The notes beneath the pieces were generated by a model, which did not search any database, was not told the DNA's origin, and was given only the letters and a program-made list of their open reading frames with translations. Source: a virus (taxonomy: Duplodnaviria; Heunggongvirae; Uroviricota; Caudoviricetes). From it: a DNA stretch of 64,000 nt. This document shows positions 1 through 64,000 of the stretch, piece after piece; positions within the stretch are counted from its first letter, which is position 1, and the number at the start of each line of letters is the position of its first letter. The stretch spans positions 128,001 to 192,000 of IMG/VR virus record IMGVR_UViG_3300029288_000055, one strand, 5' to 3'. The translations under genes and the position numbers were made by a program.

Positions 1-305
1 CTATCAATATAACTTTCTTTATATGATATTATAATTGATTGCTTTATACTTTCATCAATAATATATTTAAAATTTTTAATAAAATCAATATTACTTATCT
101 CATCTATATTTGATTCAATTTGAACATTAATCGGTATTTTATTTGATATTTTAGTAATTGGTGCTGTACTACCAAATATTCTTAATCTATCTCTTTCATT
201 CATATTTTTATTATTTTTACGTTTTTCAATAAAAGTATATTGCTGATGCCTAAGTTCAATTCTTTTTTTAATTGTATTTTTTGTATAAATACTCTGTCTC
301 TTCAT
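1..305 (-). CDS. hypothetical protein, partial (runs off the left edge), last visible gene of the glycosyltransferase operon
   Basis: Read by hand: ATG at 305 overlaps the TGA of the upstream GT (ATGA coupling); open frame MKRQSIYTKNTIKKRIELRH... to the window edge. An alternative ATG lies at 203. Confidence 0.6.
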   Translation of the reverse strand, partial: MKRQSIYTKNTIKKRIELRHQQYTFIEKRKNNKNMNERDRLRIFGSTAPITKISNKIPINVQIESNIDEISNIDFIKNFKYIIDESIKQSIIISYKESYID

Positions 306-1024
306 ACTTTATAATTTGTTGTATTATAATTAATTTTACCATTAGTTTTTGGACGGTTACTAAAATAAATCGGATATTTCTTTTCTTGAAGTTTTAAATT
401 TAATTCTGGAAAATTATCAATATGTACAACTCTAATATTTTCAATTTTTTTAATTTCATAACCACGTTTTTTCATTTCATTATTTAAATTAAAATCCCAA
501 AATTGTGATTCGTCAACAATCCACGAATTTATCTCTTCAACAACTTTTCTTCTTTGCATATTAACACAAGTTACAATATTTGAATCACCAAACACTATAC
601 TTTCAAATTCAATTTTATTTGTAGTCTGCAACACATTATATACTCCATTTCTTTTAAGCATTAACTGACCAATCTTAGGAAATGTATCCATTATATGCAC
701 CATATTTGCTAAGAAATGCGGTGTAATTGGTGGACAATCATTATCCCATTGCATTGTATATTCACAATCTTCATCAAGATTATTATAACCTACTTTCGTG
801 CCACCAAAATCTCCAGTATTTTCAGTAAGATAAATTGGTTTGATCTTATAATAACCTTCTTTTTCGAGTGATTTAAGCCATTGACTTGTACCATCAGTTG
901 ATGCTTGATCGATTACAATCATCTTATAATCATTATAACCAGCCAAACGATCAATTTCACGAATAGTAAGTGATGTATATTCCAAACGATTAAACGCTCT
1001 TATTATAATATTTACTCTTGCCAT
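302..1024 (-). CDS. glycosyltransferase family 2 (GT-A fold)
   Basis: VNIIIRAFNR N-terminal strand, VIDQASTDGT, DxD motif WDNDC. Confidence 0.85.
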   Translation of the reverse strand: MARVNIIIRAFNRLEYTSLTIREIDRLAGYNDYKMIVIDQASTDGTSQWLKSLEKEGYYKIKPIYLTENTGDFGGTKVGYNNLDEDCEYTMQWDNDCPPITPHFLANMVHIMDTFPKIGQLMLKRNGVYNVLQTTNKIEFESIVFGDSNIVTCVNMQRRKVVEEINSWIVDESQFWDFNLNNEMKKRGYEIKKIENIRVVHIDNFPELNLKLQEKKYPIYFSNRPKTNGKINYNTTNYKV

Positions 1025-1662
1025 TAGAAATTATGTTTAGCTCTGATCGCATTTATAGCGTCAATTTCACTGTTATTGTTTGAGGTAATACCAGAATCAA
1101 GGTAGTATGCATAAAATTCATTATTAAACACTGCAACACCTTCTCTGCCACTTTTAAGCATTGTCAAATACATATCCCAATCTTGTAACCTTTTAAGATT
1201 TTCGTCAAAACCACAGAATAATTCTCTACGTATTAATGACATAGTAGAAATATAATTACCATATTTTAAATTATTTCCATTAAAGGGTATTGTTGGTATC
1301 ATAAAATTATTTTTTAATGGATGATTGATGGCATTAATTACAATGCCAATATACCCACTATATGCATATGCCTTGTTTGGATTTTTATTTAAAGCATCTA
1401 ATAATTTTTCAAAATGATTTTTTGGTAAAATAATATCATTGTCACAAAAAAATATAAATGGTTGGGTTGATTTTTTAAACCCATCATTTCTCTTTTTAGG
1501 TGCACCACCTAAATCATCATTAATAATAATTTCTTTGGGTTGATTTGCATCAATTAACGGAAGTACGTAATTTTCAAAAAAATCTTTTCTTACTTTATCC
1601 TTACTGGTTGGAATTATTACCGATATTGGTAATCCTTCATCATATTCAATAACATTAATCAT
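1024..1662 (-). CDS. glycosyltransferase family 2
   Basis: ISVIIPT, KRNDGF, FIFFCDNDIIL (DxD), GFDENLKRLQDWDMYL. Confidence 0.9.
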   Translation of the reverse strand: MINVIEYDEGLPISVIIPTSKDKVRKDFFENYVLPLIDANQPKEIIINDDLGGAPKKRNDGFKKSTQPFIFFCDNDIILPKNHFEKLLDALNKNPNKAYAYSGYIGIVINAINHPLKNNFMIPTIPFNGNNLKYGNYISTMSLIRRELFCGFDENLKRLQDWDMYLTMLKSGREGVAVFNNEFYAYYLDSGITSNNNSEIDAINAIRAKHNF

Positions 1663-2203
1663 TTTTCCATTGTTTATTTCTAATTATTCTTGATATGGTT
1701 AATTCAGATACATTATATTTTATTGCAAGTTGTTTATATACTTCAGTTTTTAATTGATCATTAAAATTAAATGTACGAATCTCATGAACCTGATTTTTTG
1801 TTAATTTAGCATTTATATTGTTTTCACCAATCATATTTAATCCATTCGAATGACCTTCAACTTTTTTAGCAATATTATATAATTTATCTTTATATATTTT
1901 AAAATACTTATCTAAATATTGTTGTTCAATTTCATGTAAATTATTTTTGTTAAAAATTTGAATAATTATTGAAAATATAAAATTCTTAGACCCATATTTA
2001 TTCCATGCACGCTGTAAGTGTATGTTGTCATGTTTATTTTTATTTAATAAATGTATATGATGACTCCATCGATTTTTATAATTAAAAGCACTTCCAATAT
2101 AAAAACATCCATTTATTATATTTAAAATACGATAAATTGAACGTGGTGCTGCTTCAATGTAAGAAGGAAAATCATTATTTATTCTAAGCACATTACTTAT
2201 CAT
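1655..2203 (-). CDS. GIY-YIG homing endonuclease with C-terminal HTH
   Basis: SIYRILNIINGCFYIGSA...RWSHH...HLQRAWNKYG...EQQYLD...YNI; C-terminal GENNINAKLT...LAIKYNVSELTISRI. Confidence 0.85.
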   Translation of the reverse strand: MISNVLRINNDFPSYIEAAPRSIYRILNIINGCFYIGSAFNYKNRWSHHIHLLNKNKHDNIHLQRAWNKYGSKNFIFSIIIQIFNKNNLHEIEQQYLDKYFKIYKDKLYNIAKKVEGHSNGLNMIGENNINAKLTKNQVHEIRTFNFNDQLKTEVYKQLAIKYNVSELTISRIIRNKQWKND

Positions 2204-2886
2204 GCTTGATATATTATTGGCAATTCGTCTTTATATTTTTCTACGAATTGAAGTCTATTATTTTCCCATTGCTGGTTTGTCATTCCTACTGACTGGTGTA
2301 AAATTCTTATGTCTGTTGTAACACCAATATTACATCCAGCCAAATAATTGGGTACACAAAATGCAAGATCATAAAAATGAAAGCCTTTAAATTCTTCGTC
2401 CCACGGATGTACAATATTATTACAATCAACTGCCATAAATACACCATCGACCAAAACAACAGGTTTTGTATAACCTTTAATTGGTACTGCATATTCACTT
2501 ACCCAAACATTTGCTCCGTCTGTATGTTCAACAACACCACACATTTTTGTTCTATCTGCCCACCATTGACCACTTTCATGAAGAAATGTTGTACCAGCAA
2601 CACCAATAATGTCAAAGTTAGTGCTATTAAATTTACTGAGAAGTAATTTTCCCCAAGTACGAGTTCTGATTGTAATATCATTATGACAAAACACGAAAAT
2701 TGAATCAGGGTCATTATATTCTTTAATGGCTCTGTTATATACTTCACTAAGGCTAAACTGATTGAAGTTGGTATAGCACACTGTCTGATGTTTAACACCT
2801 ATTGTGTCATTAATATGCTTAATAAATTTTTGATTTTCTTCCTCTGACAAATGTGAGGAAAAAACTACGACAATATTATTTTTCAT
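2200..2886 (-). CDS. glycosyltransferase-like protein (GT2-related, StrF/Glyco_tranf_2_5 type)
   Basis: SLSEVYNRAI, VFCHNDI, IIGVAG, VLVDGVFMAV, WDEEFKGFHFYDLAFC. Start moved to the ATG at 2886, which overlaps the upstream stop. Confidence 0.8.
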   Translation of the reverse strand: MKNNIVVVFSSHLSEEENQKFIKHINDTIGVKHQTVCYTNFNQFSLSEVYNRAIKEYNDPDSIFVFCHNDITIRTRTWGKLLLSKFNSTNFDIIGVAGTTFLHESGQWWADRTKMCGVVEHTDGANVWVSEYAVPIKGYTKPVVLVDGVFMAVDCNNIVHPWDEEFKGFHFYDLAFCVPNYLAGCNIGVTTDIRILHQSVGMTNQQWENNRLQFVEKYKDELPIIYQA

Positions 2887-3475
2887 TTTTAATTGATTTT
2901 TTACTAAATTCAATAAATTTATTCATTTGTAACTCATTATGTTTACTTAAAACATATTGTGTTTTTTCAAGATCATATATAATTTTCTTAATATATGGTG
3001 GATATGTATAATATGGTTTCATTTCTTCTAACATTATTGAATTTCTATCACCATATCCGAAATTACGTACTTTTGCTATTTTTTCGAATTCATTTCCGAA
3101 AATCCAACTATAAATATATCCATATCTTTCCTCTAAATTTATTTTAACAAACACATATATATTTGAATAATTTTTATCTTGATATTCAATAAGATGTTCG
3201 GCTTTTGATTCTTCGCTGCTTTTTACATCAACACCATGTTTAAAGTCAAATCCTTCATCACCATCAATTAATAAACGATGATCAAATACTTCATTAAGCT
3301 GAATTTGATATATTATTTCACCTAATACGCCAACTATTTCATAATTTGGACTTAATTGTTTACAAGATGCAAAACTTTTCTTTTGTTCATGACGTTGTTT
3401 TGCAATAAATTTAGCAAATTCTAAATAAGGTGATATATTAATTTTTAAAAAATCAGGAACTTCAAATTTTTCCAT
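2876..3475 (-). CDS. hypothetical protein, possible PD-(D/E)XK nuclease fold
   Basis: GVLGE...DGDEGFDF...VDVKSS pattern. ATG at 3475 lies downstream of a host-type promoter. Confidence 0.5.
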   Translation of the reverse strand: MEKFEVPDFLKINISPYLEFAKFIAKQRHEQKKSFASCKQLSPNYEIVGVLGEIIYQIQLNEVFDHRLLIDGDEGFDFKHGVDVKSSEESKAEHLIEYQDKNYSNIYVFVKINLEERYGYIYSWIFGNEFEKIAKVRNFGYGDRNSIMLEEMKPYYTYPPYIKKIIYDLEKTQYVLSKHNELQMNKFIEFSKKSIKNEK

Positions 3476-3496
3476 GCATGCAATTATTAATAACCG

Positions 3497-3527
3497 CAAA
3501 CATAATCATTTTTATTTAAATTGTCAA
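3497..3527 (-). promoter_or_regulatory. Bacteroidota sigma-A type promoter
   Basis: Minus strand TTG-N20-TATGTTTG (TAnnTTTG -7 box). Confidence 0.6.
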
Positions 3528-3537
3528 GATATTTTAT

Positions 3538-3819: not shown

Positions 3820-3821
3820 AT

Positions 3822-4142: not shown

Positions 4143-7100
4143 TTAATGTAAAAGTAATCCATTATTTATAATTGCAGCAATAATTGCCTTCACCTGTCTT
4201 TCATCATATGATTTATTTAATCTTTGTTGTTCAGCAGTTAATATTTCTTTAATGTATGATTCTTGTAAATCAGCTTGTTTTGAAGGTAATTTATACATAC
4301 CAGCATTTGAAAATGAAGAATTTGCATAATAATTGAATGTAACTGCATTCTGCAATGCATCAATAGGTCCTTTCAATGATTGACCACCAATTATTTTTAT
4401 TTGCAATGTAACTTTAGCCATCATTGGTTGCATACCAAAACCTTCTGGATTCATATCCCAAGTTGTATCAGAATAATCAATTGTATAATTTTCAATTATT
4501 ATTTTTGTATAAAAGAAATCACCTACTCTTAAAACACATATTGGTTGACGACCAAAAACAGAATTTTTTGCAGTAATATTGTTAACACCAGTCGCATTAT
4601 CTACACTGTTCCATGATTTTGCAGCACCCTGTCGTTGACACTGATGCAAGAAAGTAAGTCGTTTATGAAAATCTTCTGGTGTTTGACTATGAAATACTGG
4701 ATAAAAATAATTACCACTAACTGAATCAAAACCATGAAGAATTCCAGTATCAGAAATGCCATTTGCAGTTGTTGCACCCCTTTCATTTAACACGCAAGAT
4801 TGACTATTTTTTATTTTTTGAAGTTGAACTTTTGCTGCTTCAATTTCTGCTTGTAATTTAATTATATTTTGTTCATCAGTTGGTGATAATTCAGCTTTCT
4901 TTGGTGGTTGTGCCTTATCATTTTTTCTAATTTCAATAAAAGCATGTCTTTCCTGTTTAGTTTCTTTTGCTGGAATTCTTGCAATTGTAGCATTAGTATC
5001 AGTTGCTTCAACATCACCAGTACTTTCACCAAGAACTAAATCCCAAATAACTTCAATACCATTAGCTACCGAACTTCCAAACATTGTTGCTAATTTTTTC
5101 TTTATTAAATTTTGTACAGCTACTGCTCTTCTTTCACCTAATTTTTTATTATAATTGCTACCAGCAACCACATCAGTTTCAATTGTTGGAGTAAATAATT
5201 TTGATGCTGCACCATGTATATAAACACTATAATATGGTCTATTATTTTCATCATTAAATATATTAAAAAGTGCATTATTTAATATATTTATACCAAATTG
5301 ATCAGTAAGTCCTGTTGCAGTATATTGTGAAGGAGTATTTGTATCTAATGCATATTTTTGTGCACCATCAATAAAGCCAAGATCAATAATACCTGTTTTA
5401 AAATATGCACCAGCATTTAAACCCCAACTTGTAATATCTGAAGAAGGTAAACCATCGATAATTTCGTATGTATATTTTTTATAAAGATCATCAATAATTG
5501 TATTAAGATTATCATTTACTGCTGGTACATCATTTGGAAACACAACATCAATATCTACTGGTTGAATATTATTTGGCTCTGCAGGATTAGTTTTTCCTTT
5601 AATTATTTCAATATCATTTGTTAATTTTGCTATTTTAAATTCATAGTTTTCAATTGATACAAATTTATCTATAAATGGCTGACCACCAAATGCAAAAAAT
5701 TCTGCAATTTCTTTTTGCTTACCAGTTGTATTTGCAAAATTTTTAAGTTGTTGTGGATAATCTATAAGTAATGTAAAACTAAGAGTTGCACCCCTTTCAG
5801 AATTCATATAATTATACATTGGTTCATTTCTACCAATAATCGATGTTGGTTCAAATTTAGCTACACCAGTTTCTTGTATTTCAAGATTATATGGCGGAAA
5901 CCACATAATTCGCCCATTGAACGGACCGACCTCACATGCTGGTATTGGAGAACCATATTCATCATCAATAATACCATATGTACTTTTACTGAGAACTCTA
6001 ACTGCAAGGTTTTCAATTGAAAACATTAAATTTTTTGGGTCTGGTTTTCCATCCTTATCTAATGTGGGATGAATACGGGGTAATACACTCTTATATAGTA
6101 CAGAATCTTTATTACCACCATAAACCTGATTACCATTAAATCTAATTGCTTTTGTAAATTTGCCATATTGATCTAATACACTATGCTGACGAATACCTTT
6201 ACGTCCAGCAAAATCAGGAAGTGCAGTTGAAGGTGCTCTCCATAATGCTGACCCATTAAAACCTACAAGTTTATCACCATCAGTAAATGCTTTTCTTGTA
6301 ATATCGCCAATCTTACCTTCAGTTGCATTTATTAAATTTCTTGTATACTCCAATAAACCAGTTCTAATTTTAAAACCAGCTTTTAAATTCTGTGACTGAA
6401 GATTATTTAAAACTTCAGGTTCTGAAACTCCACGTAATTGGGTTAATTTATCTTCAGTTTCTGGTGTAGTACCATCTCTACCCCAAACAACTTTATTTAA
6501 TTGATTGTCATTACTAAATTCAGTATTATTATCAATCCAACTATTTATGGATTGATCATCTGAAAATCCTAATAAATCACCAGTTTTTTCCGTACTTTTT
6601 GCTAATGTATTTCCAAAATTATTATTAATAAAATCAGCATCTGGTGCATATTCTTGAGTATTTGTTGAAGTACTATCATATGCTACAACCATCTGATTAT
6701 CCGATTCTACTGCTGCAGAACCTGAAGGATGATTAGTCAAATAAGGATATTCTTTTGCACTATTAAAATTAAAATATGTTTTATTACTAACAATATTACT
6801 TCTTGGTTGAATTGGACTTCGTGCAATAACGCTATATTGTGTTAATGTAGTGTCATTTTGTTTATAAATGTTCTGATTAATTGCACTATATAAAAATGTT
6901 AACTGTCCAGTACCTGTATTTTTAATAAAATCAGCATTTGTTGGATTTTTAGTAAATGGATAATCTCTATTTGGATAATTATAAATTAAATTATCAATAA
7001 AATTCTGAAAACTTGTTTGTTTTTTTACTGTTATACTGAAATTAATATTATTAGTAAAGAGTTTAGTATCTTTTGAACCATCAAATAAATTAGCTAATTT

Positions 7101-7496
7101 TATCGTAGGAAATGTTTGCTGTGCAAGATGTGAGGCTGAATTCATAGCAAATTGTTTGCCTAACATTACAAGACCAATTTCACTAAGTGGTGTACTATTT
7201 CCAGCAAGACTTGCAATTCTGCCAATTGCACTGTTTTTTAAATCAAAACCTTTAAACGGAGCAAGTGCAGAACCGATACTGCTAATAGCATTAACTACCT
7301 TTTGTATACTATTCGGATTAAGCGGATATTCAACATCAGGAGTATATAAATTTCTTGATTGTAGTATGTTTCTTAAATTATTAGAATCAACCAATAATCT
7401 TGAATTACCACCACTATCATTAACATTAATATTATTATTTGAAGTTGCTCCCGCAAATACAGTTTGTGGTTGTCTTCTGCTATTATTATCTGCCAT
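4143..7496 (-). CDS. large baseplate/tail structural protein with OmpA-like peptidoglycan-binding domain
   Basis: 1117 aa with late promoter motif. Tube-initiator-like segments IIGRNEPMYNYMNSER and FGRQPICVLRVGDFF; OmpA-like IHGAAS...YNKKLGERRAVAVQNLI. Confidence 0.65.
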   Translation of the reverse strand: MADNNSRRQPQTVFAGATSNNNINVNDSGGNSRLLVDSNNLRNILQSRNLYTPDVEYPLNPNSIQKVVNAISSIGSALAPFKGFDLKNSAIGRIASLAGNSTPLSEIGLVMLGKQFAMNSASHLAQQTFPTIKLANLFDGSKDTKLFTNNINFSITVKKQTSFQNFIDNLIYNYPNRDYPFTKNPTNADFIKNTGTGQLTFLYSAINQNIYKQNDTTLTQYSVIARSPIQPRSNIVSNKTYFNFNSAKEYPYLTNHPSGSAAVESDNQMVVAYDSTSTNTQEYAPDADFINNNFGNTLAKSTEKTGDLLGFSDDQSINSWIDNNTEFSNDNQLNKVVWGRDGTTPETEDKLTQLRGVSEPEVLNNLQSQNLKAGFKIRTGLLEYTRNLINATEGKIGDITRKAFTDGDKLVGFNGSALWRAPSTALPDFAGRKGIRQHSVLDQYGKFTKAIRFNGNQVYGGNKDSVLYKSVLPRIHPTLDKDGKPDPKNLMFSIENLAVRVLSKSTYGIIDDEYGSPIPACEVGPFNGRIMWFPPYNLEIQETGVAKFEPTSIIGRNEPMYNYMNSERGATLSFTLLIDYPQQLKNFANTTGKQKEIAEFFAFGGQPFIDKFVSIENYEFKIAKLTNDIEIIKGKTNPAEPNNIQPVDIDVVFPNDVPAVNDNLNTIIDDLYKKYTYEIIDGLPSSDITSWGLNAGAYFKTGIIDLGFIDGAQKYALDTNTPSQYTATGLTDQFGINILNNALFNIFNDENNRPYYSVYIHGAASKLFTPTIETDVVAGSNYNKKLGERRAVAVQNLIKKKLATMFGSSVANGIEVIWDLVLGESTGDVEATDTNATIARIPAKETKQERHAFIEIRKNDKAQPPKKAELSPTDEQNIIKLQAEIEAAKVQLQKIKNSQSCVLNERGATTANGISDTGILHGFDSVSGNYFYPVFHSQTPEDFHKRLTFLHQCQRQGAAKSWNSVDNATGVNNITAKNSVFGRQPICVLRVGDFFYTKIIIENYTIDYSDTTWDMNPEGFGMQPMMAKVTLQIKIIGGQSLKGPIDALQNAVTFNYYANSSFSNAGMYKLPSKQADLQESYIKEILTAEQQRLNKSYDERQVKAIIAAIINNGLLLH

Positions 7497-7560
7497 TAAT
7501 ACTTTTTTAAATAAATACTTGCAATATAAATTTAAAAAAGAATGAATTTGTTATGACAAA

Positions 7561-8127
7561 CTAAAAAGGTATATCAACGTAATTATCTTTATCAGCTTCA
7601 AAATAAATTTTAATATTCAGATTTTTTTGTTTTAAACGCTCCCACTCAATGTATATAAATTTGGCATTTGATTCATTTTCACCAAATTCTTCACGATGTA
7701 TTCTATAATATTCAAACAGATCAACTGTTTTTATTATTGCAATACTATATAACTTAAGGTCTATTGAATTGTCAAAATACGCTTGTAAAGTAAATTCAGG
7801 ATAAAGATATCCATGTTCAATTGCATAAAGTCTTTTTTCTAACTCGGTAGTATTACCCGATTCTCTTTCAGTTCTTATAGTAAACGTATTACATTTATAT
7901 ACAAATTGTACTCTTGATGCAATACCTTGCAATCCGTGTTCATCTTCTCGAAAATAATCAATGCCTGACTTTACGTCAAGCATTTTTTTTAATTCATCTT
8001 TTTCTGATTCAACTTCAATAATATTACCAGCTATTAATCTTGGAATAACAGTATATTCAATACTTCTAATTGCTCTGACACTATCTGTAATTTCTTTTTC
8101 TACCTTTTCTTGTAAATCCTTATACAT
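7561..8127 (-). CDS. hypothetical protein, putative PD-(D/E)XK nuclease paired with the methyltransferase
   Basis: LDVKSGIDY...IASRVQ...TFTIR...SG.TTELEK; start overlaps the MTase stop by 8 bp. Confidence 0.45.
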   Translation of the reverse strand: MYKDLQEKVEKEITDSVRAIRSIEYTVIPRLIAGNIIEVESEKDELKKMLDVKSGIDYFREDEHGLQGIASRVQFVYKCNTFTIRTERESGNTTELEKRLYAIEHGYLYPEFTLQAYFDNSIDLKLYSIAIIKTVDLFEYYRIHREEFGENESNAKFIYIEWERLKQKNLNIKIYFEADKDNYVDIPF

Positions 8128-9679
8128 TATCCTCTTCAGCTAATTTTTCAGTTTTTGTTTTTCTCTCAACTAATATACATCCTCTACTAATAGCAATATC
8201 AAGATTTTCTTGATCGTTGTCACAACCTTTACCAATTCTTCCTAACGTATTGGCTGCAATTATAAAACTACCTGTGCATGTGAATGGGTCAACTACAAGA
8301 TTATTAAGTTTTGATGTGTGTCTGATCAATCTCATTGATAAATCATCGGACTTCTGCCATTCATGTAATCTGTTACCAATACGACCATCAGGTGCATTAT
8401 CTTCCTGTACAGAAAACATTTCACTTGTAATAGATATATCAAGTTCGGGAGAATTGTCACTATATAAGTGCCATATCATTTGATAATTAAGATTATATTT
8501 CATTTTGGGTGTAACACCAAGAGTATTTTTATATGTCCAGATTAAAGGATTATCAACCTTAAATTTGGTCTGTTTTAATAATACATTTAAAAATGCTTGA
8601 ATTTCTTCTGGATATGAACCACTAAATACAAGCATCCTGCCAGATTGTTTGGTTTTCTGAATTGCCAGTGTAAGCCATTTTTCTGTAAACTCACCAATGT
8701 TTGAAATGTCTGTTGAATATGGGGGGTCAGTAAAAAGTAAATCAATTGAGTCATCTTCAAAACTGTTAAGAAAATCGTTGGCATCCATTAAACTTACTTC
8801 AGGTGCGTCAACCATTATTTTTTTGGCTTGTTCAATATAAATTTCTTTTTTCTTTTCAAGTTGTTTAGTTTTTTTATTCTTTTTTATTTCTCTGAGAGTT
8901 TCATTAAGTATTTTTTTACCTGCTCTTAATTCATCTACTGTTTTATCATTGGTTTCATTTTTTATTATTTCAATTGCTTTTTTAGCTTTTTCCAAAGTTT
9001 TTTTATCAGTATTTTTATCAACTAATAAAGATGCTTGACTAATTTTAAGCGAACCAATTTTTGTAGCATTTATTATAATTTCTTCACCACTATCATCAAT
9101 TTTTTTAATATCACTAATTAAGGTATATGAAATACCAGCTTTTTTGGCAAGTTCATCACGGGAATCTCTTGTTACTGTTTTAATATCACCTTTAATTTCC
9201 CCTTCTTCTTCATTAGGTGAAAAAATGGTAACCAATTTGGTACGGTCCGCAGATATTTGCGGACCTCTATCAGGTATTTGAGTCTTTATTTCCTTTTGTT
9301 TTTCTGTAAACCTTTTTTGTTCAATATCTTTAAGAATATTAGCTAAGTGTCCTCTTTCATAAGAATTAATATTTCTTCTACCAAATTGATTAAGAATTAT
9401 CCATTCCTTGGCATATTCAATATTTTCAAATTCTTTTTGAATTGTATTAAATGAAATATTATGTTTGGTACATATTTCATATCTGTTATGTCCATCTACA
9501 ATTGTTTTATTCCAAAGTATAATTGAATCTCTACAACCATCATCAATTATACTTTGTTCAAGAAGTTGATATTCTTCTGAAGATAAAGGATAAATTAATT
9601 TTTTTAATTCAAGATTTATTTCGATTATTGCCATATCAATTGAATTTTCGTTTTCTATTGGATTTACATTTTCACTCAT
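8120..9679 (-). CDS. ParB-like N-terminal domain fused to beta-class amino (N6A/N4C) DNA methyltransferase
   Basis: LEQSIIDDGCRDSII...IVDGHNRY...NQFGRRN (ParB/Srx); HTH RDELAKKAGIS; DLLFTDPPY (motif IV); HEWQKS; VVDPFTCTGS (motif I). Confidence 0.85.
   Translation of the reverse strand: MSENVNPIENENSIDMAIIEINLELKKLIYPLSSEEYQLLEQSIIDDGCRDSIILWNKTIVDGHNRYEICTKHNISFNTIQKEFENIEYAKEWIILNQFGRRNINSYERGHLANILKDIEQKRFTEKQKEIKTQIPDRGPQISADRTKLVTIFSPNEEEGEIKGDIKTVTRDSRDELAKKAGISYTLISDIKKIDDSGEEIIINATKIGSLKISQASLLVDKNTDKKTLEKAKKAIEIIKNETNDKTVDELRAGKKILNETLREIKKNKKTKQLEKKKEIYIEQAKKIMVDAPEVSLMDANDFLNSFEDDSIDLLFTDPPYSTDISNIGEFTEKWLTLAIQKTKQSGRMLVFSGSYPEEIQAFLNVLLKQTKFKVDNPLIWTYKNTLGVTPKMKYNLNYQMIWHLYSDNSPELDISITSEMFSVQEDNAPDGRIGNRLHEWQKSDDLSMRLIRHTSKLNNLVVDPFTCTGSFIIAANTLGRIGKGCDNDQENLDIAISRGCILVERKTKTEKLAEEDNV
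9244..9265. repeat. near-perfect GC-rich palindrome GGTCCGCAGATATTTGCGGACC inside the MTase gene; copy of 10688-10709
   Basis: 21 of 22 bases identical to the core of the 44-bp palindrome at 10677-10720. Confidence 0.85.
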
Positions 9680-9726
9680 GTTAATTGAATTTTAATATTT
9701 TTTTAATTAAAATTTTATTTGAGTGG

Positions 9727-9757
9727 CAAAAATATACATAATAAAATTAATATCCAA
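9727..9757 (-). promoter_or_regulatory. Bacteroidota sigma-A type promoter for the ParB-MTase operon
   Basis: Minus strand TTG-N20-TATTTTTG. Confidence 0.6.
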
Positions 9758-9784
9758 TTATTTTTAATTTTTTATTAAAAGTCC

Positions 9785-9815
9785 TTTGAAATCAAGATAT
9801 TAATTATTATCTTTG
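9785..9815 (+). promoter_or_regulatory. Bacteroidota sigma-A type promoter (rightward)
   Basis: TTTG-N19-TATCTTTG. Confidence 0.6.
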
Positions 9816-9819
9816 AATT

Positions 9820-15603: not shown

Positions 15604-15608
15604 GTAAA

Positions 15609-16829: not shown

Positions 16830-16852
16830 TTTTAAAATAAAAAATTTATACA

Positions 16853-17653: not shown

Positions 17654-17678
17654 TCTGATTTTATTAACTTATAAGTAA

Positions 17679-53722: not shown

Positions 53723-53777
53723 ATGATCTAATTTGATTTATTATAAATACTGTAATTAACTATAAATGTATATTTTA

Positions 53778-55790: not shown

Positions 55791-55861
55791 TTTTATAATT
55801 TTTTATACTTTTTTATAAATACTATGATTTCCGTGAAAAGTCATGTGAATATAAATACATA

Positions 55862-57940
55862 TTAATTTTTCTTTTTCTCTTTTATACCATTAAATAACCA
55901 AGCATTAACGCCATATGGATTTAATGGTGATGTACTATTAGGCGAAATCATAGGTTTATGGGTTTTAGTATTACCAGTGGCTATTCTTTTTCCAATTTCA
56001 TTCATTTCATTATTAGTGATAATAGCATTAAGCATTTTCTCTGTAATTCCTTTGCTTTGTTTATAACGTGCCATATCAAAATTCAATACATATAAGCCTA
56101 TAGACAATCCCATAATTGAATCATCATGAAATGAACGTTTATGATCTGCAACACGATTTCCAGCAACAGTTACAAATGTTTTTAATTCATTTAACAATCT
56201 GATAGAGTGAATAATAACATCTTCTAAATGAATTGCTCTTTGCATTTCAAGAACTACTGAGGCACGATTTCCACCGATAAAGAAACCGGGTATTAAGTCT
56301 ACGTTTACAATCGTACCATCAGCCATTGTCTTTTGACCTTTTTTAATATATCCCTGTAATCTATCCCTTGAAGGTTTATGAGTTACTTCAGCATAATGAA
56401 CATTATCATAACCATATTCAAGCATTTTTTCAACTGTTTGTACGCCATAACCACCAGTAATATCGACAACACAATAAGCATTATTATATCTTTTACCATA
56501 TTGATATGCAATTTCTGCAAGCATTTGTGGTGTTACTTTACCATAATATTCAGCAACCTGTTCAACTTTATGTCTTTTTAATTTATATTTTTTTGTTTTT
56601 CCGTTTTTAGTAATTATCTTTTCTTCAATAACTTCTTTTGTTTTTAACATATTCATAGTAGAGTTATCTTCTCCATGTCCCGGTGATGCATCAAGTGCCA
56701 TTATATATGTTTCTCCTACAATTGGGTCTTCCCAAATCCATACATTTTTATCAAGATATTCTTGACGAATTGGTGGCAATACTTCTTCATCCTGAATACG
56801 TTTTAAATATTCTTCTGAAATAAAGTTATCACCAGAACCAAGGAAAGAACAAAGTAATTCTTGTGCAATCTTACGCATATCACCTTCTGCTTCTTTAACT
56901 TGATCTTCAAACCACGGAGAACTTGCTTCCCAACCTTCATCCATCATTTGAATTCTTTTTCTGTTGTCCCAATTTTCATCAAGTAATTTTATTTCATTTT
57001 CTTTGCCTTTATTTTTTAACCAACACAAATCTTTATTATATCTTGGGTCATTATACCACCATAATTCTACTGCAACAAAGTTATTTTCTTTATTTCTTGC
57101 GCCATTAAATGTTTTATAGAATACAGCATCAAGACCTGAAGGAGTACTAACCATAATTGCAGCACCACCAGTTTGCAGTGTTGGTTTTGCAGATGTCCAA
57201 AATTTATCACCTTTTTCTGTCCATGCAGTTTCATCCCAGAAAATAAGAGTTGGCGTATATCCACGAAGACCTTTTGAAGAGAATGCACCTAATTTAGAAT
57301 TATTATCATAAATTTTTAATTTCTGAGTATCTTTTAAGTTTTTATCAAATGTTTCTCTACCAGTTTTTGGTCTAAGCCATTTTGGACAACCATCAATAAA
57401 ATCTACTACATCATTCATTAATTCATCACGAGCAACTTCAAGTTTATCAGCAACAATAGCAACTTGTCTATTTGCATTGAACATGACATACCAAGCGATA
57501 TACGCACAAGTGGTTGTTGATACACCTGCCTGACGATATTTGTTAGCAATAACAAATCTATTCTCTAAATATGTTTTAATTAATTCTTTTTGAAAATCAA
57601 ATAATTTAAAAGGTACAATTTCACCAGCAATACCTTGCGTCTGGTCAAAAATTGTTAAATATGTTTCAATAAAATATATTGGATTCATACCGCAACGAAT
57701 AACTTCATCTTCTTGTTCTTGTTTGGTTAATTCGCTGACCTTTTTTACACCATTATGCTTTGTAACAATGATAGCCTCAATTTTACCGCCTTTTTTTCTA
57801 AGTTCTTTAGCTAATTTTCTAATTGCTTCTTTTTCCTTTTCTCTTTGAGTATCAAGAGGAATTAACGGTACGTGATCGGGAAATATATCTTCATTGTTTT
57901 TTTCAGGAATATTATCAGGGTTTATATCTTTAGCACTCAT
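55862..57940 (-). CDS. terminase large subunit (T4 gp17-like)
   Basis: FKLFDFQ, KYRQAGVST (Walker A variant), IFWDETAW (Walker B), VSTPSG, IAQELLCSFLGSG, MALDAS, HDDSIM. Confidence 0.95.
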   Translation of the reverse strand: MSAKDINPDNIPEKNNEDIFPDHVPLIPLDTQREKEKEAIRKLAKELRKKGGKIEAIIVTKHNGVKKVSELTKQEQEDEVIRCGMNPIYFIETYLTIFDQTQGIAGEIVPFKLFDFQKELIKTYLENRFVIANKYRQAGVSTTTCAYIAWYVMFNANRQVAIVADKLEVARDELMNDVVDFIDGCPKWLRPKTGRETFDKNLKDTQKLKIYDNNSKLGAFSSKGLRGYTPTLIFWDETAWTEKGDKFWTSAKPTLQTGGAAIMVSTPSGLDAVFYKTFNGARNKENNFVAVELWWYNDPRYNKDLCWLKNKGKENEIKLLDENWDNRKRIQMMDEGWEASSPWFEDQVKEAEGDMRKIAQELLCSFLGSGDNFISEEYLKRIQDEEVLPPIRQEYLDKNVWIWEDPIVGETYIMALDASPGHGEDNSTMNMLKTKEVIEEKIITKNGKTKKYKLKRHKVEQVAEYYGKVTPQMLAEIAYQYGKRYNNAYCVVDITGGYGVQTVEKMLEYGYDNVHYAEVTHKPSRDRLQGYIKKGQKTMADGTIVNVDLIPGFFIGGNRASVVLEMQRAIHLEDVIIHSIRLLNELKTFVTVAGNRVADHKRSFHDDSIMGLSIGLYVLNFDMARYKQSKGITEKMLNAIITNNEMNEIGKRIATGNTKTHKPMISPNSTSPLNPYGVNAWLFNGIKEKKKN

Positions 57941-57954
57941 TATAAATTTTTATA

Positions 57955-57962
57955 ATAAATAC
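57955..57962 (-). promoter_or_regulatory. late promoter motif GTATTTAT (terminase)
   Basis: ATAAATAC on the + strand 14 nt from the terminase ATG. Confidence 0.7.
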
Positions 57963-57964
57963 TC

Positions 57965-58112
57965 TCACCACATAAAACCGCAAAGCTCGGCAATAATCTT
58001 GTACTGTCGAGCTTCGAATTTCCTTCTTCCTAATATGGTAAGATGAACTCTTTTAAACCGAAAACACATGCATACATTTTCTTTTCTGTTTTACCACATG
58101 GGCATTCAGATG
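57965..58112 (-). ncRNA. candidate structured late ncRNA upstream of the terminase
   Basis: Own late motif at 58115-58122, no ORF longer than 15 codons, hairpins at 58016-58050 and 57981-58016. Confidence 0.45.
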
Positions 58113-58123
58113 ATATAAATACT

Positions 58124-58609
58124 TTAAAATCTTATAGAAGACGTTTCTACAAATTCATTATTTTTTAATATGATTTTTCTTGCATTAAGCAAATCTTTAA
58201 CTTTTGCTAATGACATGCCATAATGAAATACTAATAATGGTACGTCATCTTCTTGTCCGTTAAACATGTTGTCATAGTCACTGGAAGGATTGCTATTTTC
58301 ATCTTTCTTTTCAATTTCATATGCAAGAGCATGTATAGTGTGATAGCCATGCATATATGGTCTGTCAACAGCTTCATGTAAACAAAAAAGATCAAATGAA
58401 CTTGTCTTTAAATTAAAAATAGCATTTATAAAAGATTCAGTTGGTGGCATTGCATTATCACATGCTGGTGTAATATCCCAACACCAACCATCCACATCAA
58501 TATTAGTTTCGTCAAGCGAAAAAATAAATTCAAATAACCCTTCATCCTTCGAATTGTAGCCAATCTTTAGCACATAAATCAATTTTAATTTATTATCTTC
58601 GTATTCCAT
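58124..58609 (-). CDS. hypothetical late protein
   Basis: 161 aa, late motif at 58622. Confidence 0.7.
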   Translation of the reverse strand: MEYEDNKLKLIYVLKIGYNSKDEGLFEFIFSLDETNIDVDGWCWDITPACDNAMPPTESFINAIFNLKTSSFDLFCLHEAVDRPYMHGYHTIHALAYEIEKKDENSNPSSDYDNMFNGQEDDVPLLVFHYGMSLAKVKDLLNARKIILKNNEFVETSSIRF

Positions 58610-58636
58610 AATGATTTTTTTATAAATACACCCCAG

Positions 58637-58661
58637 AAAAAAAAGCCATATTAAGTGGCTT
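58637..58661 (-). terminator. intrinsic terminator
   Basis: Minus strand AAGCCAC-TTAAT-ATGGCTT followed by a T tract. Confidence 0.65.
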
Positions 58662-59076
58662 ATATTTTATCAAGATCGAGTCCCATAATTTTTTTTATTT
58701 CACTCAAAAGAATTGTTTGAGTTAGTTTATATGCCCTGAGAGAATTTTTTTCTTTTTTCTTAAAAATAAAATAGCCGATTTGAAATAAAATAGCAATACA
58801 AATGAAAAGATAAAAAAGTAATTGTGTCTTCATATATAATGCAGCAATAAATAAAAATGCATAACTTTCTCTCAAGCAAAGTCCTTTCCATGAAGATAAC
58901 ACAGTTATCACATCATCCAAATATGTTTTTAATAGTCTTCTGTATTCAAGCCAGTCACAATCAGAATTATCTTCTTTCGTGCCTTGCACATTAAGAAAAA
59001 TTTCTTTTTCTTTTTTCTTTGAACCGCCAATATATGTTCTGCGATATTTACTTTCAGTTATTTCAATTTCAATCAT
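58660..59076 (-). CDS. membrane protein (two TM helices)
   Basis: YAFLFIAALYM...LLFYLFICIAILFQIGYFIF. Confidence 0.7.
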   Translation of the reverse strand: MIEIEITESKYRRTYIGGSKKKEKEIFLNVQGTKEDNSDCDWLEYRRLLKTYLDDVITVLSSWKGLCLRESYAFLFIAALYMKTQLLFYLFICIAILFQIGYFIFKKKEKNSLRAYKLTQTILLSEIKKIMGLDLDKI

Positions 59077-59083
59077 AATAATG

Positions 59084-59115
59084 CTTATACGGAAATAAAT
59101 TATAAAGGTTACAAA
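59084..59115 (-). promoter_or_regulatory. ECF-like promoter TTTGTAACC-N15-CGTATAAG
   Basis: Same bipartite motif as 29752-29784. Confidence 0.6.
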
Positions 59116-59137
59116 AAAACCCGAATTTCTTCGGGTT
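59113..59137 (-). terminator. intrinsic terminator
   Basis: AACCCGAA-N4-TTCGGGTT plus T tract on the minus strand. Confidence 0.75.
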
Positions 59138-59162
59138 CTTATTTATTTAATTTGTTGGTTTA

Positions 59163-61814
59163 TTATATGCCAGATAATCCTGTGCTGCCACCACCTTGTG
59201 GAGTTCTTATACCAGTATCCTGATATTGTTTCGAACCGTAGATTAATTTTCCTGCTTTATCAACTCTCAAAGTACCACCACCACCATCAACATATTGTTG
59301 AAGAAGAGCATATTTTTCTTGTGGTGTTGCTCTTTTTGCTGCAGTGCCAATAGCACTCATATGTGGATTAATTAAAATATTTTTGAATGCAGATTGAAAT
59401 AATGTATCAACACCCACTTGATCATTTGGGTCTAATTTTGCTAATTTTTCTGCAACACTAAATCCCAATATTTCATTTAATTTACTCTTTTTTTTTAAGG
59501 CAACAGCTTCAAATAACTTAAATTGGTTATCAATTACTGCATCAAGTTTCTTTAATGTTTCAGACTTCTTACTTTCATTTAAACTTGGTTTTCTTATTCC
59601 AGCATGTTCTTCAAGACGAGTACGAATGTATTTTCTCAATTTCTGTTCTGATTCATTCATTTGTACATTTTCGTCTTCAATACCTTTTTTGAAACGTTTT
59701 GCTAATGCTTTACGTGCTGGTGTACATGTTGGCTTAGTCATAGGAGTACAATAACCTTTATGTTCTGGGTCTACTGCCTTTTGAATCCACTTTTCATCTT
59801 CTTTAAGAGGTTTTGCTTCAGCCATATAAGCATTCACACCTTCAGCAATTAATTTAATCAATCTTTTCTTTGCTTCATTCATTGCAATACTAACAGTTTT
59901 ATCAGGCTGAATTGTAATATCAACGCCTGTTGTTGGAGCACCATCAGGTTTAACAACACCACCACCTAATGACTGTGAATCTTGTGCAAAAGTAAATTCT
60001 GGCTTTGTTTCTGGAGTTACATCATCAGTATCATTATCTGGTTCAACATCAGTTACAGGAGTTTCTTCACCAGCTTCAATATCTACATCAGGTGTTTCAA
60101 TTTCAGGTTCTTCTGTTTCGGGTTCATCATCTTCTTTTAACATGCCCGGTTGTACTTGAACCTGATCAACAGGAGTAACACCTTCAGCTTTATATTTGCT
60201 TAAGTTTGCTGCGCCTGAACCTCTAAGTTGATTAGACAATGTTTGAATTATACTATTTACATTAATTGGTTCTTGACCTGCTTTAGCAGCACCTGCATTT
60301 GCAGCAGCAATCTGTTTACCCAAATCTGCAGCAAGTGTTTCAAGTTTACCTAACGCTGAATTTCTTTGTTTTGTGCCTGTTTTAACATCTTGTGCTTGAC
60401 TACCTGCCTGATATGCTTGTTTAGCAGCTTGAACACCTTGTCCAACTTTTTCTGCACCAGCTTTATAAAGACTTGATGCACCACCAGCAATACCTTTAGC
60501 AGCACCAGCAATACCTTTGCCAATACCACCAAGAGCTGCTTTACCTAAACCAACTAAACCGCCACCCCATGCTTCTTTAAGTTGTGCTTTCAAATCTTCT
60601 TCAGGTGCTTCATTCATTGAATCTACTTGTGGCTGCATTTTTTCAGCATAATCATCACGACCATAATCAGTTTTCAATTTATCAAGAACTTCTGGAGATA
60701 ATTTAATAACTAAACTAATAGTTTTTTCATCACCATCATTCATACCTTCTTCGCTTGCGCCAACATAACCATTTACAACGTTTGCTTGTTCTTCACTTCC
60801 ACTTTCCATAAATGCTTCTGAAGTATCGTATCCACGTGATTTAGCATATTTACCAAAACCACCACATTCTGCACAATCTTCTTCTTCAATACCAGCTTCT
60901 GGTTCTGCTTTTGGTTCATCTTGAGGTACACTTTGAGCTAAATCTTCAACTTCATCATCACCAAGAACTTTAAGAATACCGTCAGCAATACCTTTTCTGT
61001 CTTCAATATCCATATTTTTTAATTTAGGTCTATATGCAGCAATAACTGATTTTAAATTACCAGTAACCTGACTATCTTCCATATCAGTTTTTCTAACTTT
61101 TTCACCTAATTTACCAATCAATTTATCAACATCATTTGTGGGTTCTTCTGTAGTACCAGTTTCATCACCAGCAGGTTTTTCAACATCATCAGTAGGTGGA
61201 ACTTCATCATCACCAGCAGGTGGAACTTCTGTATCCGTTTCAGGAGCAGGTGTTTCATCACCAGCAATTACACCAGTATCTTCTGCATCAGGAGAAGGTT
61301 CTACTGGTTCTGAAGAAACTACATCAGGAGAAGAAGGTTCTAAAGGAGCACCGGGTGTTTCAGGACTTGTTGCTGCACTTGTTGCTGCATCCAAATCACC
61401 TAATTTACTTTCTGCATTATCAAGTTCTGTTTTAGCTACATCTTCATTAAGCATTTTTTTCTTCTTACTGCCGTTTATATCTGGTTTATTTGTAATACCT
61501 TCATTAATTGTTTGAAATATCATATTTCTTTGTTTATCAGCTTCTGATAATTTAGAATACTGAAAATCGGTAATATTAGATAAGCCACCAATATATGCAA
61601 AATCTGCAACATTTGGGTCTTGTTTAATTCCAGCTTTCTTAATATAATAGTTGTGCTGTTCTTTAACAATTCCATAAGCAATACCATCGGCTGCTCTTTT
61701 ATAGTCAATCAAAGTACCCAAATTACGGGTATTATCCTTTAATATGGGTTTTTTAACTTCAGCCAATTCTTGAATTCTTTGAAGAAATGCTTCTTTTGTT
61801 ACATGTCTTTTCAT
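59163..61814 (-). CDS. large acidic internal head/core protein
   Basis: 883 aa, acidic and Ala/Gly low-complexity segments, many LNE/MNE/LKE sites, late motif at 61860. Confidence 0.6.
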   Translation of the reverse strand: MKRHVTKEAFLQRIQELAEVKKPILKDNTRNLGTLIDYKRAADGIAYGIVKEQHNYYIKKAGIKQDPNVADFAYIGGLSNITDFQYSKLSEADKQRNMIFQTINEGITNKPDINGSKKKKMLNEDVAKTELDNAESKLGDLDAATSAATSPETPGAPLEPSSPDVVSSEPVEPSPDAEDTGVIAGDETPAPETDTEVPPAGDDEVPPTDDVEKPAGDETGTTEEPTNDVDKLIGKLGEKVRKTDMEDSQVTGNLKSVIAAYRPKLKNMDIEDRKGIADGILKVLGDDEVEDLAQSVPQDEPKAEPEAGIEEEDCAECGGFGKYAKSRGYDTSEAFMESGSEEQANVVNGYVGASEEGMNDGDEKTISLVIKLSPEVLDKLKTDYGRDDYAEKMQPQVDSMNEAPEEDLKAQLKEAWGGGLVGLGKAALGGIGKGIAGAAKGIAGGASSLYKAGAEKVGQGVQAAKQAYQAGSQAQDVKTGTKQRNSALGKLETLAADLGKQIAAANAGAAKAGQEPINVNSIIQTLSNQLRGSGAANLSKYKAEGVTPVDQVQVQPGMLKEDDEPETEEPEIETPDVDIEAGEETPVTDVEPDNDTDDVTPETKPEFTFAQDSQSLGGGVVKPDGAPTTGVDITIQPDKTVSIAMNEAKKRLIKLIAEGVNAYMAEAKPLKEDEKWIQKAVDPEHKGYCTPMTKPTCTPARKALAKRFKKGIEDENVQMNESEQKLRKYIRTRLEEHAGIRKPSLNESKKSETLKKLDAVIDNQFKLFEAVALKKKSKLNEILGFSVAEKLAKLDPNDQVGVDTLFQSAFKNILINPHMSAIGTAAKRATPQEKYALLQQYVDGGGGTLRVDKAGKLIYGSKQYQDTGIRTPQGGGSTGLSGI

Positions 61815-62952: not shown

Positions 62953-62953
62953 A

Positions 62954-63229
62954 TTAATATTTATCTAACATTTCACTTATTTGTTTAACAGCAGCAGTAA
63001 ATTTTGGCTTTCTTTCTACCATTAACCTATATAATGTATCAATTACATCATATTCTTGATCATCAAACAACTGATCAATAGTTGCCTTTAATTTTTCAAC
63101 TTTTATTGCATACATATTAGGGTCTTTCTCATAATTGCTCATATCATAACCTTCTGTTAATTTAAACTTAGGGTCTAATTTTGATATCATTTCAAACAAT
63201 CGCTTTTTATTATCTTTAAAATTTACCAT
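62954..63229 (-). CDS. hypothetical protein (putative head cargo)
   Basis: KKRLFEMISKL...LTEG...ISE; late motif at 63295. Confidence 0.6.
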   Translation of the reverse strand: MVNFKDNKKRLFEMISKLDPKFKLTEGYDMSNYEKDPNMYAIKVEKLKATIDQLFDDQEYDVIDTLYRLMVERKPKFTAAVKQISEMLDKY

Positions 63230-63352
63230 GCCTAATATCTTTTATTGTTTTGTTGTAGGTGTGCCAATTTTTTACCATCTCAACAACATTTTCTATAAAT
63301 ACAAAACTATTAATTAAAATGCGATAGTATTTATGATAAATTCTTGTACGAA

Positions 63353-64000
63353 ATGAATTTAGAATGTTTAAATGGTATAATTACCGACAATCTTGCTATA
63401 CACATAGACTTAACTCAATTGAAGTCATGGAACTTAAACAGTGGCTTTACATCAATTAGTTTAACTAAATGGGCAGGTGCTGTTTCTGAGAACATTAACC
63501 TTATGGACTTTGGATTAACTGAGTTCGATAATGGAAGAACCAATCTTATGTGGAGTGGGATAACTCTCACACCTGCGGATACATTGTTTCATATGTATAG
63601 AGTGGGATACAATCAAATTATAAATCCAAGTACTGGCAATACAAGTGGTTATACTGCAACAACTGTGCACACTGGATATGCAATAACTGGCGCATCTGCC
63701 ACAACTGGCAATTATTTTATACTTAATGGTGGATATTTACAAGGATTTTTCAAAGCAGAAGGATATGGCTTTGAATTATTACCCAAAAGATATGGCACTG
63801 GTATTACTATTGAAACTCTCGTATATCTTTATCCTGACTCTCAGGGCATATTTTATATGATGGGTGCACGTTCAGAAGATAAATATAATCCGTATTTCAG
63901 TGGTGAAACAATAACTGGTTTAACAACAATTAATACTGGTTTAACTCCATCAATAAGACAAACATTTACTGGTGTTACCACAAGTTATGATAATTATTTA
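63353..64000 (+). CDS. virion structural protein, partial (runs off the right edge)
   Basis: Translated by hand, open to the window end (MNLECLNGIITDNL...); late motif at 63327; ten [ST]Gx[ST] motifs in 216 aa. Confidence 0.75.
   Translation, partial: MNLECLNGIITDNLAIHIDLTQLKSWNLNSGFTSISLTKWAGAVSENINLMDFGLTEFDNGRTNLMWSGITLTPADTLFHMYRVGYNQIINPSTGNTSGYTATTVHTGYAITGASATTGNYFILNGGYLQGFFKAEGYGFELLPKRYGTGITIETLVYLYPDSQGIFYMMGARSEDKYNPYFSGETITGLTTINTGLTPSIRQTFTGVTTSYDNYL

Follow-up and report, generated by a model that had tools for sequence, protein, structure and literature searches.

The 64,000-nt window considered here, positions 128,001 to 192,000 of IMG/VR record IMGVR_UViG_3300029288_000055 (G000:C1:128001-192000), comes from an uncultured phage whose late virion proteins are strongly enriched in the tetrapeptide [ST]-G-x-T and whose genome encodes both a conserved set of glycosyltransferases (GTs) and a hypervariable glycan island. 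The single most likely reading, which we favor tentatively, is that the virion is O-glycosylated at [ST]GxT by the phage's own soluble GTs; we infer that proteins are the substrates of these enzymes, with the motif as acceptor, and that core and island enzymes divide the labor.

The contig, C1, comprises 362,763 bp with 30.5% GC, and codes for a T4-type major capsid protein, portal, terminase, sheath and T4-like baseplate protein. Given this gene content, the GC offset from the remaining 37 contigs of the bin (1.27 Mb in all; mostly 33-41% GC) and four IMG/VR relatives of 325-365 kb, two of which carry direct terminal repeats, C1 represents an uncultured jumbo myovirus whose genome is nearly complete and has been binned together with that of a small bacterium. 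The non-phage contigs add up to about 0.9 Mb, with GC near 36%, and the bacterium in the bin is not necessarily the host. No near-identical DNA was found among 50,697 GenBank phages; relatives in IMG/VR are numerous, with sheaths 60-77% identical. Orthologs were compared by BLAST in three complete relatives (G001, G003 and G004), and the outgroup and control set consisted of T4, Microcystis phage Mel-JY01 (PP395634.1), Flavobacterium phage immuto_3-5A (MW353176.1, hereafter immuto), RM378 and the other contigs of the bin.

The [ST]-G-x-T motif in late virion proteins

The motif analysis bears on the following features, given in window coordinates:

24044-26845, minus strand: tail sheath, 933 amino acids, phrog_23; 13 [ST]Gx[ST], of which nine are [ST]GxT
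29830-31011, plus strand: motif-enriched late protein without assigned function, 393 amino acids; late motif 25 nt upstream
31002-31826, plus strand: marginally enriched protein without assigned function, 274 amino acids
42647-44323, minus strand: major capsid protein, phrog_138; three motifs, no significant excess
63344-64000 (continuing to window 65458), plus strand: 5' part of a late protein of 704 amino acids, the most motif-dense of the window; GTATTTAT 17 nt upstream
7511-7518 (minus strand), 26908-26915 and 63327-63334: example sites of the late-promoter-like motif GTATTTAT

The initial annotation had counted the broader word [ST]Gx[ST] in these proteins and in several controls, and its counts were exact on recount. 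The sheath holds 13 copies against 2.6 expected, the 63344 protein ten within its first 219 amino acids and 15 across all 704 (1.65 expected), and the 29830-31011 and 31002-31826 proteins five and three, respectively (0.49 expected in each). The word is absent from the thymidylate synthase ThyA, the 44344-45975 protein and the GT-B enzyme described below, occurs once in the terminase and three times in the helicase, including the Walker A (TGKT). Of the virion proteins claimed to be enriched, the sheath, the 63344 protein and the 29830-31011 protein keep their excess after composition and block shuffles and the 31002-31826 protein is marginal (block shuffle, p 0.02), but the capsid protein drops out, its three copies against 0.93 expected giving p 0.06, and about 0.11 after block shuffle, which is not significant.

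Enrichment as such was thus upheld, but the word had been drawn too broadly. Within the enriched set, TG.T and SG.T reach 5.6 and 7.4 times expectation, ratios that are inflated because the set had been selected on the motif; [ST]G.S reaches 1.2-2.6 times, permuted forms 0.9-1.9 times, and words in which Ala, Asn or Asp replaces Gly about 1. In an unbiased scan of all 8000 patterns of the form 'ab.c', TG.T and SG.T ranked highest both within and outside the fiber cluster, with only the zinc-finger word CP.C above them. The specific motif is [ST]-G-x-T.

Genome-wide, [ST]G.T occurs 216 times against 62.9 expected (3.44-fold), and shuffling in blocks of 30 amino acids yields 67 +/- 7 copies with a maximum of 89. 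Block shuffles of 15 and 30 residues leave the excess standing in the sheath, in the 63344 and 29830 proteins, and in ten large proteins encoded at C1:39-114 kb (fibers), which rules out local ST/G-rich composition as its cause. The corresponding DNA pattern occurs 216 times in frame against 6-53 times in any one of the other frames, and both families of Ser codons are used; being almost wholly in frame on the coding strand, it points to selection on the protein, and a DNA-level origin such as a recombination or restriction word can be discarded. A hidden common domain was likewise rejected: the enriched proteins form at least six groups without BLAST connection, the sheath outer domains, the fibers and the 63344 and 29830 proteins among them, and hhalign finds the sheath insert and the 63344 family unrelated (probability 0.3%).

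The distribution of the motif follows late transcription. By k-mer analysis, GTATTTAT is 12.7-fold enriched in upstream regions and present in 60 of them; it lies 17-70 nt 5' of the genes for sheath, portal, terminase, fiber, the 29830 and 63344 proteins and many others, about 60 genes in all and nearly all virion-type, and is probably the late promoter. Taking as a late unit any gene with GTATTTAT upstream together with its tightly packed co-directional followers, late units contain 188 [ST]G.T against 45 expected (4.18-fold; 4.0 per 1000 amino acids) and all other genes 28 against 17.9 (1.56-fold; 0.44 per 1000 amino acids), the latter ratio being the background level of the control genomes. 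The enrichment of structural over non-structural proteins foreseen in the initial annotation is borne out at the level of late, virion-type transcription units. Other genes are preceded by a second set of words, TTGTAACC and CGTATAAG/T, possibly an early or middle promoter.

In the sheath, alignment to T4 gp18 is limited to residues 8-63 and 624-931, the latter block pairing with gp18 residues 343-654, which we take to be the gp18 inner domains. Twelve of the 13 sheath motifs lie in residues 105-552, an insert replacing the surface-exposed gp18 domains I and II, in agreement with the earlier remark that they cluster in variable inserted domains. Among 55 sheath homologs, each with 4-14 motifs, positions turn over across about 55 alignment columns, and gains arise by point changes in otherwise conserved contexts (e.g., residues 105, 253 and 490). 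The 63344 family behaves differently: in 18 homologs four motif sites are invariant and several others nearly so. An AlphaFold2 (AF2) model of the 63344 protein has a predicted local distance difference test score (pLDDT) of 50.7, and its N-terminal 250 residues, which carry most motifs, fall below 50; in the confident parts, five motif sites appear to sit at strand/loop junctions. The protein is possibly ConA/LamG-like, as suggested by an Atlas lead.

The motif is lineage-specific. The genome-wide [ST]G.T ratio is 3.7, 3.08 and 2.14 in the other lineage genomes (G001, G003 and G004), and lineage genomes have 4-14 individually enriched proteins each. The ratio is 1.35 in T4, 1.0 in Mel-JY01, 1.73 in immuto, 1.92 in RM378 and 1.5 in the bin's other contigs, and none of these five contains an individually enriched protein. 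Outgroup sheaths have 0-2 motifs, and the fibers, sheath and baseplate of T4 show no excess. A generic property of phage fibers and sheaths is accordingly ruled out by T4, Mel-JY01 and RM378, the excess in immuto being weak. Mel-JY01, a cultured phage, has words of its own, with SG.S found 68 times against 11.6 expected in the protein encoded at 635-3052 and 11 times against 0.8 in that at 9444-9986; its genome is also rich in GT.G and codes for two GT2 genes, and these words look like other Ser/Gly-rich or collagen-like kinds. A further late protein of the window (47540-52936, 1798 amino acids) bears an endolysin-like C-terminal domain (phrog_291, residues 1573-1789) and is probably a tail lysin or tape-measure fusion.

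Core glycosyltransferases and the variable glycan island

The conserved genes comprise an operon, whose first three members we call the core trio, and a GT-A gene at the edge of the island:

14863-15603, plus strand: candidate HAD-like protein, first of the core trio; no family match, nucleophile Asp not conserved
15609-16829, plus strand: core GT-B (GT4-like), 406 amino acids, assigned from AF2 fold and Foldseek
16853-17653, plus strand: core GT-A (GT2), 266 amino acids; PF00535, 27.9 bits against a cut-off of 23.3; orthologs of 65-67% identity in all relatives
17679-18446, plus strand: sigma-like protein, last gene of the trio operon; weak match to TIGR02937 (E 0.009)
2200-2913, minus strand: core GT-A (Glyco_tranf_2_5), edge of the island; PF13712, 91.9 bits against a cut-off of 27; orthologs of 65-75% identity in G001, G003 and G004

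In the three complete relatives, the 2200-2913 GT-A, the HAD-like protein, the GT-B and the 16853-17653 GT2 are conserved at 57-75% identity, and so is the sigma-like gene. The order HAD-like/GT-B/GT2/sigma-like is intact in 59 of the 59 IMG/VR loci with enough upstream sequence, so that no natural knock-out of the trio was found among them. GTs and motif are retained together in all four complete relatives, whereas neither the trio nor the core GT-A occurs in the outgroups.

No Pfam, NCBIfam, PHROG or PDB sequence match was obtained for the GT-B, and its assignment rests on structure. The AF2 model, built with 22 homologs (pLDDT 69, predicted TM-score 0.71), shows two domains of alternating beta/alpha elements, and Foldseek returned 419 matches at E <= 0.001. 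The top ones, 8xsh and 8xsg (E 1.5e-10, TM 0.57-0.68), are an Actinobacillus minor glucosyltransferase, followed by BshA, MshA, PglA, GtfA, SdgB and Gtf3, all GT-B enzymes of GT4 type; an Atlas feature search, taken as a lead, agrees. The modeled fold thus supports a GT-B, GT4-like assignment. Where a C-terminal motif of EX7E type would be expected the sequence reads SSFGTFPLE, with another residue in place of the first Glu and a second Glu that is retained and almost invariant. No family member occurs in the 50,697 GenBank phage records; metagenomes gave 766 matches, and the family comprises 412 clusters at 50% identity. The GT-B is better conserved (70-91% identity, hundreds of metagenomic relatives) than the sheath (60-77%). 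One relative is labeled 'Candidatus Dojkabacteria bacterium' and is probably a mis-binned phage contig. A search for distant members with genomic context gave none in P0145, and A5 and P0123 yielded this lineage only.

The first protein of the trio matched no Pfam, NCBIfam, PHROG or PDB profile, and across four orthologs its motif I takes the forms DVD, EID, DIN and VVD. The initial annotation had placed two GTs in one operon with a late sigma factor; the gene in question is the last of the trio operon, but its sigma match is weak, a PDB profile search gave none, and the operon lacks the late motif.

The island (C1:117705-130203, window -10295 to 2203) occupies a fixed locus resembling an O-antigen locus. 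Its content differs in each of the four related 325-365-kb phages: the stretch of about 12 kb that runs from C1:117,705 to the core GT-A changes from genome to genome. Within the window, the island and the unit leading into it contain:

1-305 (C1:127256-128305), minus strand: 5' part of a GT-A/GT2 extending past the window start, 349 amino acids; PF00535 (38.6 bits), PF10111, PF02709
302-1024, minus strand: GT-A (GT2), 240 amino acids; PF00535 (E 5.6e-10, 39.9 bits); ortholog in G003 only; no transmembrane segment
1024-1662, minus strand: GT-A (GT2), 212 amino acids; PF00535 (E 1.4e-10, 41.8 bits), PF10111; no ortholog in the three complete relatives
1655-2203, minus strand: GIY-YIG homing endonuclease between GT genes; PF01541 (E 1.1e-7)
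2876-3499, minus strand: genome-specific protein without family match or ortholog, 207 amino acids; same late unit as the island GTs
4143-7496, minus strand: protein of 1117 amino acids heading the late unit into the island, GTATTTAT 22 nt upstream; conserved beside the core GT-A in G003

The whole island lies within the late unit behind GTATTTAT at 7511-7518, and a terminator scan found no terminator-like site on the minus strand between there and the window start. Upstream of the window the co-directional run reaches C1:117,705 and includes another GT-A (PF02709/PF10111) and a weak Glyco_tranf_2_5 match, bringing the island to at least four GT-A genes. The initial annotation had listed five GT genes; four are recognized by Pfam and the GT-B by fold, but the count was too low: one GT2 crosses the window start and there are one or two further GT-A-like genes beyond it, probably making at least three more. 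The same run encodes a DegT aminotransferase (best match PseC), a GNAT protein (best match PseH), a methyltransferase, a pfkB kinase and a nucleotidyltransferase (best matches HldE domains I and II, both below cut-offs) and an ADP-glyceromanno-heptose 6-epimerase, an HldD equivalog at 324.5 bits against a cut-off of 274.6. An HNH homing endonuclease gene (C1:119966-121102) and a 95-residue open reading frame separate the HldE-kinase-like gene precisely from the HldE-adenylyltransferase-like one, as though a bifunctional hldE had been split. In the relatives the heptose genes are not conserved: the G004 island encodes a Galactosyl_T-like protein, a fusion of an RmlD-like reductase with a C-methyltransferase, and a separate methyltransferase, and that of G003 a double GT2, a Polysacc_synt_2 dehydratase and others. 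No GT9 heptosyltransferase (PF01075) was found in the whole bin. The island has no flippase, polymerase, ligase or initiating phosphoglycosyl transferase, and by hydropathy none of its proteins, nor any of the 24 proteins of the two glyco clusters, has a membrane segment.

A sugar island of at least 10 kb is also present in the cultured phage immuto, a relative of relatives (49128-59944), with several GTs, two aminotransferases, an epimerase and, in its own annotation, a 'pilin glycosylation protein'. Its DegT protein is 54% identical to that of C1. Immuto is a possible experimental model for phage-made glycans.

Since phage GTs may also modify DNA, the enzymes that provide a hydroxylated base are of interest:

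34602-35684, plus strand: canonical thymidylate synthase ThyA, phrog_160; reads ALPPCH and QRSCD...PFNIAS

This ThyA carries the L143, C146, D169 and N177 signature, residues that separate thymidylate synthases from hydroxymethylases, dCMP-specific enzymes and 5-hydroxycytosine (5hoC) synthases (PMC13326640). Its canonical character argues against a ThyA-derived hydroxylated pyrimidine, and the bin contains no second ThyA homolog, no Tet_JBP protein (PF12851) and no C5-methyltransferase (PF00145). No route to a hydroxylated or glycosylatable DNA base was found in the bin, which extends to the whole bin what had been stated for the window on the basis of the dUMP-specifying Asn. The nearby DNA methyltransferase (8120-9679, 519 amino acids, PF01555) is of N6/N4 type and adjoins a MerR/HTH protein (10087-10674).

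Proposed virion glycosylation and its alternatives

If the virion is O-glycosylated by the phage, [ST]-G-x-T on outward-facing late proteins (the sheath outer domains, the large fiber cluster, the 63344 and 29830 proteins), mostly at beta-strand/turn junctions, would be the acceptor signal. The core set, made up of a GT-B, a GT-A and their degenerate HAD-like partner together with the Glyco_tranf_2_5 GT-A, would place the first sugars in the cytoplasm, and the hypervariable island, as part of a late unit, would then build a strain-specific glycan. In C1 the island holds at least four GT-A genes, genes for ADP-L,D-heptose, a PseC/PseH-like pair for an amino sugar, and a methyltransferase gene. 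We put forward as more speculative, and doubtful in its entirety, the extended proposal that a whole lineage of uncultured jumbo phages bears O-glycans on sheath, fibers and outer proteins at a dispersed [ST]-G-x-T sequon, primed by the conserved GT-B/GT-A pair with its dead HAD-like partner and extended by an O-antigen-like hypervariable island into strain-specific 'phage serotypes', here with heptose and a Pse-like amino sugar.

Several observations weigh against glycosylation at the motif. Proteins outside late units show no avoidance of it, and the trio operon (14863-18446) lacks GTATTTAT. The GT-B model is moderately confident, and its EX7E-type motif is SSFG...E. Since no relative lacks the GTs, motif and GTs amount to a single phylogenetic contrast; furthermore, immuto, despite its sugar island, has a TG.T excess of 2.1-fold and no enriched protein, and a sugar island therefore does not imply the motif. 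The remaining points concern the motif itself. Thr is strongly favored over Ser at the last position and one sheath column alternates between T and V, both of which fit beta-strand propensity; the flanks are hydrophobic at -1 and often at +2, as at a turn-to-strand junction; and many fiber motifs belong to clear repeat units, namely N-[ST]-[ST]-G-x-T-N-x-A-x-G (YadA-head-like), LGGxLTGxTxID and KPQWLSGxTL..FQ[ST]GHTH, and are possibly structural.

These same features of sequence would be expected of a structural idiom, in which [ST]-G forms an ST-turn or beta-bulge and Thr opens the next strand in beta-rich outer domains and fiber repeats expanded and shuffled by this lineage, the GTs having another target. 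The invariant sites of the 63344 family, the strand/loop junctions in the confident parts of its model, and the mild TG.T excess of immuto fibers homologous to those of C1 are consistent with it. Such an idiom would, however, have to account for the lack of excess in virion proteins of T4, Mel-JY01 and RM378, homologous sheaths included, and for the presence of the motif in unrelated folds; and the new sheath motifs gained at residues 105, 253 and 490 arise inside conserved contexts and are therefore not needed for folding. We regard this explanation as possible, though on balance doubtful. Remodeling of host envelope glycans, be they lipopolysaccharide (LPS), capsule or cell wall, on lipid-linked host intermediates at the cytoplasmic face could serve superinfection exclusion or keep progeny from sticking to debris, and would leave the motif unexplained. 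Heptose and Pse-like amino sugars are typical of LPS and capsules, the PHROG and NCBIfam neighbors are GtrB-like, TuaG-like and PgaC-like, and a sugar island that keeps its place while its content varies recalls O-antigen loci; but expression from a late unit comes late for such a role, and the missing flippase, polymerase, ligase, initiating transferase and transmembrane segments speak against it, even if host enzymes could still supply these. We consider this unlikely.

Slightly less probable again is hypermodification of the phage DNA with glycans against restriction, as in T-even phages, RB69 and the TET/GT systems, with the motif unrelated. Phage GT-A and GT-B enzymes often glycosylate DNA, with repertoires that vary between relatives (PMC13326640), expression of the core trio is separate from that of the late genes, a nucleotidase-like putative HAD protein is among its members, and an N6/N4 DNA methyltransferase is nearby. 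Against this stand the canonical ThyA as sole homolog, the missing Tet_JBP and C5-methyltransferase, the location of the island in a late unit, and the fact that the T4 enzymes AGT and BGT are not among the fold matches listed, although a DNA acceptor of unfamiliar chemistry is conceivable. That the motif marks some other modification or interaction, such as phosphorylation, docking of a decoration protein or chaperone recognition, would suit its confinement to late proteins irrespective of fold, but no matching enzyme or partner was identified, no systematic kinase search having been made, and we give this very little weight.

Relation to known systems and significance

Glycosylation of mycobacteriophage virions (Che8, Corndog and Myrna) was reportedly described by Freeman et al. 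in Cell Host Microbe in 2023. Phage-encoded GTs glycosylate mycobacteriophage capsid and tail-tube proteins at their C-termini, according to the part of PMC12619734 that cites this work. The likeness to C1 lies in phage-encoded soluble GTs and, as proposed for C1, in virion structural proteins as targets, a cytoplasmic setting and a role in shielding the particle surface. The mycobacteriophage glycans are, however, C-terminal and belong to small siphoviruses of Actinobacteria, whereas C1 is a 363-kb myovirus whose candidate acceptor is a dispersed tetrapeptide on sheath, fibers and late proteins, accompanied by the conserved trio and by a variable sugar island of 12 kb. As far as we found, phage virion glycosylation rests on this one experimental system, and our literature search met no description of a dispersed acceptor motif on phage sheaths or fibers.

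In bacteria, cytoplasmic TibC heptosylates Ser in the NSGG and NTSA turns of TibA, a beta-helical adhesin (PMC4358343). The autotransporter heptosyltransferase pairs Aah/AIDA-I and TibC/TibA, with their cytoplasmic Ser O-glycosylation at beta-helical turns, resemble what is proposed for C1, C1 having ADP-heptose genes and YadA-like fiber repeats with the motif; they differ in that the C1 bin lacks a GT9 (PF01075), the heptose genes are not kept in relatives and the C1 motif requires Thr at +3. Giant viruses encode their own glycosylation machinery, as seen in the capsid glycans of chloroviruses and the fibrils of mimivirus. Their nucleotide-sugar pathways (amino-sugar aminotransferase and acetyltransferase) and GTs, which decorate the virion surface at non-canonical sites, parallel those of C1, but these are eukaryotic viruses with N-linked or fibril glycans, and their enzymes have no sequence relationship to those of C1.

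For phage DNA, Pyle et al. are said to have described TET-dependent glycans on 5-hydroxymethylcytosine. Arabinosyl-5hoC DNA occurs in RB69 and DLP3 (PMC13326640). These systems, like the alpha- and beta-GTs of T4, share with C1 GT-A/GT-B enzymes, nucleoside diphosphate-sugar genes and variable repertoires, but need a hydroxylated base from a ThyA variant or from TET plus a C5-methyltransferase, none of which was found in the C1 bin. The moraphages, jumbo phages of aquatic origin whose four core GT orthogroups have no assigned target (PMC12619734), resemble C1 in that they are uncultured, lack a phage RNA polymerase and carry several core GTs; their genomes reach up to 307 kbp against 325-365 kb here, and no acceptor motif is reported for them in the same source.

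If O-glycosylation at [ST]-G-x-T is true, a short acceptor word that can simply be counted on tail sheath and fibers would allow phage glycobiology to be predicted from sequence, and a conserved priming module combined with a swappable island would suggest that phages, like bacteria, have surface serotypes under diversifying selection, with a bearing on phage adsorption, environmental stability and immune recognition of phages. Should the motif prove structural, it would still be a lineage-specific signature of exposed virion domains and aid the annotation of orphan late proteins.

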